Positions 1,425 through 26,000 of a stretch of 64,000 nt of DNA are shown one piece after another. Under the pieces are notes generated by a model, which had not been told where the DNA came from, searched no databases, and worked only from the letters and a program-made list of their open reading frames with translations. How positions within the stretch are numbered: position 1 is the first letter of the stretch; each line of letters opens with the position of its first letter. The stretch comes from Eledone cirrhosa (Eukaryota): positions 152,148,001 to 152,212,000 of the forward strand of contig OZ024741.1 in assembly GCA_964016885.1 (NCBI GenBank), given 5' to 3'. The translations under genes and the position numbers were made by a program.

Positions 1425-1507
1425 ATAGATAGATAGATATATAAATAGATAGATAGATAGATAGATAGATAGATAGATAGATAGATAGATAGATAGATAG
1501 ATAGATA
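1425..1507. repeat. (GATA)n tract abutting 3' end of Tx1 copy 1
   Basis: Direct reading. Confidence 0.95.
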
Positions 1508-1737
1508 TGTTTCTTTTTATTTGCCACCAGGGCATCAAAAAGTGGGACAAGTACAATGGGGCGACTTTACATAAAAAGCGAGTAAAGAAAACAAATAACA
1601 AATATAAAATTAACAATAAAGTCCTCAATAGGTAGGGGGCGTTTGGGGGGTCGCACACACCCCCGAAAAAGGTGTGCAACCCCTTCACCTCAGGAGCACA
1701 GAGAGAGGGTACTCCCTCGTTCCTTCCTCTTTTCCAC

Positions 1738-4700
1738 CTACAGGCTGATGTAAAGAGAAGGCCCATTCACACGGGCCATTCTCGCGACTTTCACCCACCT
1801 TTCATAAAAACGACTGGGGTGGAGTACCTCTCTCTCCATCCTGATCCTTCTTCCGAAATGATATCGGAAGAAACGGACCAGTTGTTGGCCAGAGAGAAGG
1901 GTGCCTGACCTCAGTCCTTTCAGACGCGTTCACCATACAACTTCTTTCACCATGGCTATTACACACAGAAACACCGCCTCTCCTTCATTTTTGAAGGGGG
2001 GGGGGCTTGATCGTTACAATAGACTCGGTGGTCAACCGGATCGGTCCCACCCTTGACAGCAGTTGTTCGACATAGCCCCACAGATCGGCTACGCCCGAGC
2101 AGTGTACCAATGCGTGTGCAACGGTTTCCTCGTCGCACACGCATCTGGGACAGATCTTTTTGGCGTGGTCCCTACCCGGGCGCCCGTGTCTGTAGAGCTT
2201 TTCTCGAACGGGTAGCACTGCCAGGCCAGGGACTTCTGGAAGTTGTCCATAGGTCCCGGGCTGAATGTCCTACCGAACAGGCTGGCCAGTTCGTCTTCCT
2301 CCATGTCTAGGGCTTCTCCGAGGGCGTCGTCGCCCCTGCTGCGCACCAGCCCTCTATAGAATGTTGCGGTGGAGTCTCCACTGATAACCGGATCCGCCTG
2401 CCAGAGGGCGGTGAGCGCCTGGGCACACTCAGTGTGCCAGGCGCCCAGTTTTCTCGGTCTTTGCTTGACCCAGGATTGCAGCTCGGTGAGTGAGACGAGT
2501 CTGGGAAAGGTTCGTCTCACAAACGAGGCCCACACCGGTTGACCGGTGAGGAATACGTGGAGGTGCCGTAGCCTTAATGCGTGTTTACGCATCATTAGCC
2601 ACGGCATCCCCAGCCCTCCTTTCTAAGGGTGTTGACAGCAGGTGGATCTCCTCACCAAAGGAGCCCGCTTCTTCCAAAGGAATTGGAAGAGTGCGCGCTC
2701 CATCTTGGCGAGGGTTTTCCTTGGGCAAGGCACGACGGTCAGGCGGTAGTAGATGACGGACGCTGTATAGGTGTTCGCCACCTCCGCCCGACCTTTCAGG
2801 GATAGTTTGCAACTGGCCCACTTCTGGGTCAGTGCAAACACCCTGTTCGTAACCTCAGCCCAGTTCTTCTCCACCTGGAGGTCTGGTCCGAACCAGACCC
2901 CGAGCAACTTCACCGGGCCCTCCGTCCAGCGTCCGATGACGCCATCGGAGGGCATCGGTTTGCCCCTCCACGTGCCGAGTTGCAAACCGATCGACTTGTC
3001 CCGGTTCAGCTTAGCCCCTGTGAACCTTTCTTACTCCTCCAGTAAGGTGCCGATCGCCCCGATTTCGGAGGCCGTCGACACCATTACTGTCACGTCATCG
3101 GCGTAGGCCGACACCGCTTTCCGCAATCCCGGTTCCAAAGGGATGCCCTGCAACAACTCCAACTTCCGCAGTAGTGGCTCGAGAGTCAACACATACATAA
3201 GGGAGGAGAGAGGGCACCTTTGTCGAATGGACCGCGCGATTTTGAACGGTTCCGAGAGGTAGCCGTTCACCTTGACCCTAGAGCAGATGCGGCCGCTGTG
3301 CATAGCAGTGATCCAGCCCCTGAAAACGGGTCCGAAGCCTGCCGCCGCTAGCACCGCATCCAGGTAACGATGGTCGACCCTATCGAACGCCTTAGATTGA
3401 TCCAAGTTGATCAGAGCCCCACCAAAGCCGGGTTCGTTCCCAACCCTCTCTACGATGTATCGCATGAGGTGGAGGTTGTCATGGATGGACCTGGACGGGA
3501 TAGCACATGTCTGCGCATCTCCCAGCAGGTTGGCCACGTCAAGCGCCAACCTCTTTGCAGCACCTTGGCCAAAATCTGTAACTCTGTATTTAGCAGAGTT
3601 ATGGGCCTGAAGTTACTTATTTCGTCCCCCTTGTTCTCGTCCTTCCTCACTAGCGTGACTACGCCCTTGGTCACAGCACAGGGAATTCTCCCGTTCTGTT
3701 GCCAGTTGCAGTAGACTGCCTCGAGGAGATCGAGGAACAAGTCCGGCATAGCTAGATATAGTTCGTATGGAAGACCATCGAGACCCGGGGATTTGCGTTT
3801 GCCGCATTGGCTCAGCACGTCCTCTATCTCAGCGGCTGAAATCGGCTCCTCGCAGGACTTCGCCTCCCTGTCCGAGAGACGCGGCAGACCGTCGAGGTAT
3901 GGACCGTAGTCCACATCCCCAACCGGCTCCCCGCCCCTTCCGAACAGTCGGCCAAAGTGCCTTTGAAAGGCCTCACAAATCTGCTTAGGCTCAAGGATCG
4001 CCCGTCCATCCTGGTCCCGCAAAGACCGGATGGTGGATTTAGTTCCACTCTTGGCCTCTGTCACGCGGGCCCAGCTAACAGCTTTGGTCCCCTCGTTTCC
4101 ATAGAGCACGTATTTTACTTCGGACAACGCAGCCTTCGTGCTTCGCGTCGAAAAACTGGCTCAAAGCCGTTCTCGACGCTAGCACTCTGGCCACCTCGCC
4201 GCTTCTAATTGCCTCTTCTACTCTATCGATTAGCTCCCTTTCCTTCCTATTCCTATCCGCAGCTAGAACCTTACTAAATTCTATCGAGACTACTCTAATC
4301 TCTCTCTTTAGAGATACCCACCACCTGCTGTTGACGATCGCCCCAGTCAACCGCTCCTTAACTAACGTACTAATCCGGTCCCTATAAGCTTTACTTGCCG
4401 GCAAGGACAAGTTGAGCTTCCAGTAACCGGGGCCCTGTCTATGCGTTCTATCAAGGTTGACCATGCAGGTCACCAACTTGTGGTCTGAATAGCCAACCAT
4501 AAGCATTTCTGGACAACTTAAAATGTCTCTGTGCTTATTTCTAACTAAAAACCTATCTAGGTACGATCTAGATTGACCGCTACGATTTGACCAAGACCAG
4601 GTTGGCACCGTCGGAAAATCTAGTCGAAATCTATCGGCCAGGTCAAATCGGCCGAGTAACCCCTTGAGGCTGTTGCACCCCTTTCTATCGGGGCATGCCC

Positions 4701-24484: not shown

Positions 24485-24739
24485 TTCTGTCAGACGATTG
24501 AAATCTTTTATGCCACAAAATTTTTAAAAACAGGTTTTTCACCCCTGGGAGGGGCAAAGATGAGCTGACCCATTGCCTGACAGTTCAGACGGGGGGTCAA
24601 GCTACACAATAGTATCAAAATTAAAATTGAACTTACAAAATTTCCGCAATAAATTTAAACAAAACTTCTGCGCGAAGTGTATTACATCTACGCTGTAGAA
24701 CAGACGACAGCTAGTCAATTAAATAGATAGATAGATAGA

Positions 24740-26000
24740 GAAGCACCAACAGAAAAATAGAGAGCCGTCAGGTTTGTTGGAAAGTTTGAAGAAGGTAAAG
24801 GCAGGACAACACGTGAAGAAACATAGTGAGACAGTAAATAGAAAACTGGAGATGATGGAGAAGAAAAGAAAATGAAGGAGAACTTATTGTGTGAATGAGG
24901 GGCAAAGGTGGAAGTGAGAAAGGAAGGGTGAAAACGTAATAGGATACAAAAAATGTTTTAAAAGGAAAATAATGAAATGAATTTTGATATGAATAAAGCT
25001 AGAAATGGATAGAAAAATGAAGAACAGAAATAGTGAATGAATTAAATGTTGAAAGAGTAATACTGGAGAATGGAAGGAGGAATGGAAAAATGAAGAAATA
25101 AATAGATCAATGAAAGAAAAATAGAAAGAATGAAGAAGCGGATGAATGGAAACCAAAGGGAAAAGGGGATGGAAAGAATGAATAAGCAAAGAAAGAAAAA
25201 TTGAAGGAATTTAAAATTTATAAATTGCAGGAACGAAATATTATATAAATGGAGACAAAACAGGAAAAAATGGAAATGAAATAATGATGAATGAAAAAGT
25301 AAATGAATGAAGGAAAGAAGACATTTAAGAAAGGAGACATTTAAGAGAGAAACAAAAAAGTAAAATATAAACAAAAGGATGAGGAAGAAAATAATGAATA
25401 ATTGGTGAAAAGAGGAGATGAAGAAATTAATATATGAAGAAATCATGAAGGAATGAAAAAATTAAGGAGAGAAAACAAGACATGAAGGAATTAATAAGTT
25501 AAAAATTGAAAGAATGAAGGAACGAAAAGAAAAAATATAGAAAATAGTGTGTTTTTAGGTGGCTACAGCATTGCTAATAGGACATTACAAAATGAAAGTA
25601 ACAAAGTTGTAATGTTACCGTGAAGATGTTTAATTAGTCCTTAGTGTTTCGGAATAAAATCCACTTATCAAAAGAAGCGTTAGAGAAACTAAGTCGGAAA
25701 AAGAATGAAAGGTATAAAAGAATGCTGCAATGGAAGAATGGAGGAATGAATGAATGATGGAATGAGGGAACGATAGAATGATAGAATGAAGGACTGGAGG
25801 AATGGAGAAATGGGGGAATGGGGGTGATGGAATGGAGTAAAGGAAGAATGGAGAAATAGTACATTGAAGGAATCGGAAATGGAGGGATGAAAGAATGGAG
25901 GCATGAGGGAATGGGGGACAAAGGAATAGTGGGAATAACAGAGTGGAGGTATGGAGGAATTAAAGAACGAAGAAATGACAGAGCATTATAAAGTAATTTC
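24740..26000. repeat. Purine-rich (GAA/GAAT/GGAAT) low-complexity tract
   Basis: Strong A/G strand bias, degenerate GGAAT units. Confidence 0.8.

Follow-up and report, generated by a model that had tools for sequence, protein, structure and literature searches.

A stretch of 64,000 nucleotides from Eledone cirrhosa (assembly GCA_964016885.1, contig OZ024741.1, positions 152,148,001 to 152,212,000 of the forward strand; the window) contains a head-to-tail array of four long interspersed nuclear elements (LINEs) of L1/Tx1 type, designated E1 to E4. The evidence gives good support to the interpretation of the array as a stack that is GATA-specific at the local level and was built up serially. 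We favour, with a probability of about 0.7, the explanation that diverged L1/Tx1-type families each inserted separately into the same (GATA)n microsatellite by target-primed reverse transcription. Their head-to-tail stacking within GATA is then likely due to this separate insertion into one microsatellite.

A preliminary description of this DNA reported four diverged LINEs of about 5.7 kb in the same orientation, spaced by GATA only. Its coordinates hold: the elements measure 5.7–5.8 kb, lie on the minus strand at 1508–24722 and are separated exclusively by GATA tracts of 29–130 bp, which are interrupted rather than pure. The fifth copy named there was found at 58486 with the same junction and belongs to the family of E2, to which it is 95.7% identical over 5.5 kb. 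Three further copies, T1, T2 and F6, were absent from that description. The elements of the window are:

1508–7179, minus strand: E1, full-length Tx1-type LINE of 5672 bp, decayed; open reading frame (ORF) 2 at 1738–5160, ORF1 core with zinc knuckle at 5548–6588.
7209–13042, minus strand: E2, full-length, 5834 bp; ORF2 open at 7449–10853, ORF1 with an in-frame stop.
13173–18840, minus strand: E3, full-length, 5668 bp, the most decayed; ORF2 at 13389–16728.
18896–24722, minus strand: E4, full-length, 5827 bp; ORF2 at 19113–22549, ORF1 frame with RNA-binding-like core at 23171–24391.
26107–26154, minus strand: T2, 48-bp stub of a 3' end, with GATA on its 5' side and (TA)n instead of ATCT on its 3' side.
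26175–26555, minus strand: T1, 5'-truncated copy of 380 bp that ends within ORF2; it belongs to the E2/E5 family, with 96% identity to E5.
about 29200–30550 (approximate bounds), plus strand: F6, old decayed relative (32–60% amino acid identity over pieces) with a similar 3' end and GATA on neither side.
58486–64000, minus strand: E5, copy of the E2 family running off the window end; ORF2 at 58724–62156.

The 3' ends of E1–E5 consist of AATAAA, 0–2 nt, GAAA(C/T), (A/T) and TATCTATC and lack a poly(A) tail, in agreement with the earlier observation that they read directly into (ATCT)n. When aligned, the conserved terminus is GCC-N5-GGY, followed by AATAAA and GAAA(C/T) and leading straight into TATCTATC. 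Folding placed a small hairpin before AATAAA in all five window copies, with z-scores from 0.07 to −2.98; it is not used as evidence. The 5' ends of E1–E4 have the motif AGA(C/T)GT...AC(A/T)TCG in common. Compared to the other three full-length elements, only E4 carries about 30 additional nucleotides 5' of this start motif (24693–24722).

The GATA tracts adjoining these elements are:

1421–1507: tract on the 3' side of E1, in element sense (TATC)15 TATTTATA (TATC)3; its distal 27 nt match the E1 5' flank at 26 of 27 positions.
7180–7208: interrupted spacer of 29 bp between the E2 3' end and the E1 5' end.
13043–13172: spacer between the E3 3' end and the E2 5' end, with the interruption motif TGTCTGGCAAAT (sense) at 13153–13164.
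18841–18895: spacer between the E4 3' end and the E3 5' end, in which the interruption motif recurs at 18864–18875, likely the E3 target-site duplication.
24723–24740: (GATA)3 at the E4 5' junction, element-free upstream, with a 19-nt match to the E4 3' flank.
26155–26174: (GATA)5 between T2 and T1.
26556–26624: (GATA)17 at the T1 truncation point, with 2-nt microhomology, element-free upstream.
58424–58485: compound GATA/GACA tract at the E5 3' end.

The association of the elements with GATA is beyond chance. In the window, (GATA)3 is matched 63 times, exclusively on the plus strand, compared to 0.01 matches expected from shuffled sequences, and each of the 11 tracts of (GATA)3 or more, again on the plus strand, has an element no more than 150 nt away. 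The remaining 34,071 nt of the window contain no such tract; TA tracts number 60 there, and several tracts of CA, GA and CATA are also present. Within this single window, the 3' flank is TATC in six of eight copies (E1–E5 and T1), and six of the seven visible 5' junctions adjoin GATA, with F6 as the exception. According to the accessible text of PMC4494074, a Tx1 family is considered target-specific when more than 20% of its flanks share one target type. None of the TC/GA and TTC/GAA tracts present in the window serves as an insertion junction.

Pairwise identities among E1–E4 are 79.6–89.3% for ORF2 DNA and 55.9–64.9% for the 5' untranslated region together with ORF1. These values speak against a recent tandem duplication, as had been argued from the divergence of the copies. 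The private substitutions of E1, E3 and E4 are in excess at third codon positions, indicating that these elements represent separate families that evolved under selection. It is therefore very improbable that the array arose by tandem duplication or by misassembly across the GATA tracts, even though arrays of a sister lineage (see below) do grow by duplication. Besides the divergence and its codon-position bias, the shortness and the interruptions of the spacers speak against it, as do a window sequence free of N with a resolved AT repeat of 1.5 kb and the recurrence of the same junction at the separate loci of T1 and E5.

Whether GATA is the target or merely the tail of the elements was addressed at the 5' junctions, as the 3' side cannot decide this question. 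Four of the six GATA-adjoining 5' junctions can be explained as the tail of the upstream neighbour, but those of E4 and T1 cannot. At the 5' junction of E4, (TATC)3 is followed by unrelated DNA. The truncation of T1 falls within ORF2, at a point where the sequences of E2 and E5 lack ATCT; there T1 adjoins (GATA)17, upstream of which no 3' end of an element is found. As no element lies upstream of either junction, these two tracts are not the tail of a neighbour.

The flanks of E3 align over 38–43 nt, and the 64 kb contain exactly two copies of the 12-mer TGTCTGGCAAAT, one in each tract flanking E3. This duplicated interruption likely represents a target-site duplication. Flank matches were also found for E1 (26/27) and E4 (19/19); however, the TATT interruptions on which they are based are also found in pairs of tracts that are not the two sides of a single element, which counts against them and leaves only the E3 match diagnostic. 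The elements have also decayed to different degrees. E1, E2, E3 and E4 carry 6, 0, 10 and 1 frameshifting indels in ORF2, respectively (chi-square against equal decay, p = 0.0016), the inequality persists when only indels longer than 1 nt are counted (p = 0.026), and ORF2 stops number three in E1, four in E3 and one in E4. Insertion was therefore probably serial, at different times. A C-to-T change in the E3 5' flank that is mirrored at the E4 5' flank and missing from the E3 3' flank fits the arrival of E4 after E3.

Template jumping would explain the same geometry by a single event: ATCT would be no more than an element-encoded tail, and the reverse transcriptase (RT), on reaching the 5' end of an RNA, would switch to the next RNA at its AUCU tail; the ATCT at the 5' edge would stem from final jumps of this kind. 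All four array members are indeed full length, every internal junction has the order 3' end, ATCT, 5' end, and T2, T1 and (ATCT)17 can be read as one chain begun in a TA repeat; in the sister lineage, truncated units are joined directly to 3' tails. Set against this are the unequal decay, the interruption duplicated on both sides of E3 and the extra abortive jumps required at both E4 and T1, so that we regard template jumping as quite improbable.

Several observations weigh against separate insertion into GATA. The 3' end of T2 runs into (TA)n, both ends of F6 are free of GATA, and no target-site duplication is visible for E2. The lack of a free GATA tract in the window also fits elements that create tracts. 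Four full-length inserts in one tract exceed the expectation from a random choice among many tracts, which could reflect a local hot spot, a scarcity of free tracts or preferential use of those beside an element 5' end. Some of the 1-bp indels could be assembly errors or could have been inherited from defective donors, and all evidence derives from a single window. The earlier proposal that one GATA microsatellite was hit repeatedly is supported in part and at the local level, by GATA on both sides (including the E4 and T1 5' junctions), the duplication around E3 and the unequal decay. Targeting of the 5' end of an element instead of GATA was also considered; it was rejected, as no full-length 5' end lies downstream of E1, E5 or T1.

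Under serial insertion into GATA, an endonuclease of apurinic/apyrimidinic (APE) type would nick the GATA strand, probably between units, since the plus-strand sequence at each 3' junction is ...GATA|element. The RNA would lack a templated poly(A) tail and probably extend a few AUCU units past AAUAAA by read-through of the donor flank; these units could pair with the nicked strand and prime synthesis. Cleavage of the second strand at a distance of about 17–40 nt would result in a partial duplication of the tract. Such a staggered cut would leave GATA on both sides and renew the target after each insertion, and nicking of one strand only would give every insert in a tract the same orientation. 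Decay and mirrored interruptions suggest a likely order in which E3 and E1 are older and E4 and E2 were added later on their 5' sides.

The protein features fit an L1/Tx1-type assignment, with an N-terminal APE endonuclease, an RT domain, a C-terminal zinc finger and a separate ORF1. ORF2 of E2 matches the Pfam domains EEP (6.7e-12), RVT_1 (7.8e-23) and zf-RVT (2.6e-6), and the endonuclease motifs N, E, GDWN, YLDR and SDH as well as the RT motif YADD are all present. A profile of 12 relatives found human L1 ORF2p as best solved match (E = 1.5e-110), compared to about 1e-37 for R2 proteins. Tx1 elements have a separate ORF1 with an RNA-binding core and a CCHC knuckle. ORF1 of the window elements combines an RNA-binding-like core with such a knuckle, which has the form CX2CX4HX4C in E1 and E2, with H replaced by Y in E3 and E4. 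The zf-CCHC match is weak in E1 (E = 0.06) and above the cutoff in the homologous sister ORF1, and Atlas neighbours of ORF1 are zf-CCHC/ZCCHC3-like at 0.89–0.92. A homolog search with ORF1 and an Rfam search of the window gave no match. E2 had been put forward as a source of the enzyme; its ORF2 is open, but ORF1 contains an in-frame stop and ORF2 a private 24-bp deletion.

The best named relative is a protein of Argonauta hians (64% identity). Reads or contigs matching E2 were found by the thousand in all four runs examined (three organisms), at identities from below 90% to above 99%, as in a large multi-family repeat. The E2 family is thus abundant and common to several species. For Octopus vulgaris, the accessible part of PMC13282606 gives 80 L1-Tx1 consensus families, which together cover 56 Mb and of which 13 have been active recently.

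In a quick RT tree (55 rows, relatives unnamed or automatically named, deep nodes unresolved), E1–E5 form a clade with an SH-aLRT support of 98. The next node outwards adds an unnamed protein (99), and the one after it a sister group of 39–42% identity (100). This sister group resides in animal-like DNA filed under a bacterial metagenome-assembled genome, with 85 matches in head-to-tail arrays on many contigs. Its ORF2 is 39–42% identical to those of the window elements, and the ORF1 core is homologous (E = 5e-11). Like the window elements, the sister elements form head-to-tail arrays and have AATAAA ends without poly(A), but their arrays are near-homogeneous, lack GATA or any other spacer and have unique flanks. 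The sister units end in GTGCC...AATAAA followed by 12–29 nt of family-specific sequence. This tail is carried onto the unique flanks at array ends, and within arrays the next unit, even when truncated, follows directly. Neighbouring units are 99.4–100% identical at the seven loci tested, and one truncated unit is present twice, exactly; DNA-level duplication therefore contributes to these arrays. The arrays (loci L081–L117 and L132–L149) carry mostly intact ORF2s and reach about 11 units (about 67 kb).

None of 131 metagenome and genome loci with relatives contained (GATA)3; targeting of GATA is therefore not an ancestral trait of the wider lineage. When array ends were added, a single locus of 149 had (GATA)3, at a distance of 3.6 kb from the array. 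Since the sister RNA is copied past AATAAA, the first ATCT units at the window 3' ends are probably RNA-templated as well. Part of the 3' ATCT is thus probably RNA-encoded, and tail and target are compatible readings. Viral contigs contained no relative of the elements; 20 matches to the junction pattern on such contigs showed neither element likeness nor a GATA tract and were attributed to chance. Locus L119 carries a distant Tx1-like ORF2 (26%) between two matches to U1 small nuclear RNA (3036–3199 and 9961–10137), possibly a U1-associated family.

A candidate specificity hairpin in the endonuclease, W[ST]W[ST]N[RH]SG[QT]SRSYLD, is conserved in E1–E5, apart from single stops. Its loop aligns with that of L1 and has the same length and pattern in E1–E5 and in four relatives of 62–68% identity, while it is two residues longer in four of five GATA-free sisters examined. 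This conservation would be consistent with a specificity set by the enzyme.

The tails of the sister lineage bear on a further explanation, in which a loose endonuclease leaves the choice of site to the RNA. An AUCU read-through tail would pick GATA by pairing with nicked DNA, the elements would seed many tracts, and the sequence downstream of the donor, whatever its nature, would become the target. The family-specific, poly(A)-free tails of sisters joined to E1–E5 with a clade support of 100, copied as they are onto unique flanks, point in this direction, as do the lack of a free GATA tract in 34 kb and the position of T2 in a TA repeat. However, much of the sister arrays is explained by DNA-level duplication, the GATA families share a conserved hairpin loop, and the endonucleases of Tx1L, TRAS1 and R1Bm are sequence-specific by themselves, as stated in the accessible text of PMC1919474. 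We thus consider homing by RNA unlikely. Extended to the whole lineage, the read-through tail would set the target in general: one branch would read into its own neighbour and form self-arrays of up to tens of kb, and the octopod branch would have acquired AUCU, leading to GATA homing and the stacking of unrelated families. This extended scenario appears rather unlikely to us.

Serial insertion into GATA has parallels among known Tx1 elements. As far as the accessible texts go, endonuclease-determined targeting and microsatellite targets of Tx1 are stated in PMC4494074 and PMC1919474. The described microsatellite targets are (TC)n for Kibi, (TTC)n for Koshi and (TTCC)n/(TTTC)n for crocodilian families (PMC4494074); others comprise U2, transposons and telomeric repeats (PMC4494074, PMC10088271). 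Like the array elements, Kibi, Koshi and the crocodilian Tx1 are APE-type LINEs with a microsatellite as insertion site, and one target type is common to several related families. They differ in their hosts (teleosts or crocodilians instead of an octopod) and in their targets, which here is (GATA/TATC)n. The crocodilian Tx1-Mar and SINEU-3 resemble the array in their tandem insertions that sandwich a target-site duplication, were read as sequential and place different families at one target, but that target is a Mariner transposon and not a simple repeat (PMC4494074).

Polarised stacks of non-long-terminal-repeat elements in, or instead of, short repeats are also formed by TRAS and SART, by Tx1-1_ACar in telomeric repeats and by Drosophila HeT-A/TART/TAHRE, according to the accessible text of PMC10088271; TRAS and SART belong to the R1 clade (PMC1919474, in part). 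In contrast to such telomeric stacks, the array is interstitial among other repeats, shows no sign of a chromosome end and has no poly(A) junctions: it gives way to 39 kb of ordinary repeats, and the window contains only four TTAGGG-like units, near 28773. The suggested likeness to HeT-A/TART stacks is therefore confined to the geometry. Full-text searches of the literature found no GATA-targeting Tx1; Repbase, Dfam and the supplements and figure labels of PMC4494074 were outside this search, and the families may be catalogued there. The word 'gata' is absent from the main text of PMC4494074 and of PMC8967140.

The array would extend the short list of target repeats of APE-type LINEs by (GATA)n, in a lineage that appears to be abundant in several related species and has a relative in Argonauta. 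GATA-targeting elements and self-arraying sisters at 40% identity offer a natural comparison for the endonuclease loop or the RNA tail as target setter, a question relevant to site-specific retrotransposon tools. If the reading based on the RNA tail is true, a target switch needs a lucky donor site and not a new endonuclease, and an element would be reprogrammable via 12–30 nt of RNA. GATA microsatellites are in use as octopus markers (Ov12, PMC4755602), and some of these markers could be insertion sites with element-derived flanks.

The remainder of the window is rich in other repeats. A different LINE, which we take to be RTE-like, lies on the minus strand at 34552–37825, with EEP and RT domains, a C2H2-like end and (TA)n on both sides. 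An element that appears to be Penelope-like, with a weak RT match, is located between TA tracts at 45669–49967 and is bounded by an inverted repeat (45509–46155 versus 49421–50081, 93.6% including AT-repeat edges). Nearly all identified retroelements (E1–E5, T1, T2, the RTE-like and the Penelope-like ORFs) are on the minus strand, with F6 as the exception; this bias could reflect an intron or a region resembling a one-strand PIWI-interacting RNA cluster. A dispersed short interspersed nuclear element presumably resembles octopus elements of this type. Two copies of a repeat (1–470 and 43678–44179, 87%) end abutting an ACAT/TA microsatellite and probably represent the 3' end of another retroelement. 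Short non-autonomous repeats with internal repeats, presumably Helitron-like, are located beside TA tracts at 26650–27295 and 31570–32570. At 51212–52475, CAC/CAT triplets make up a tandem array whose period is about 97 bp.

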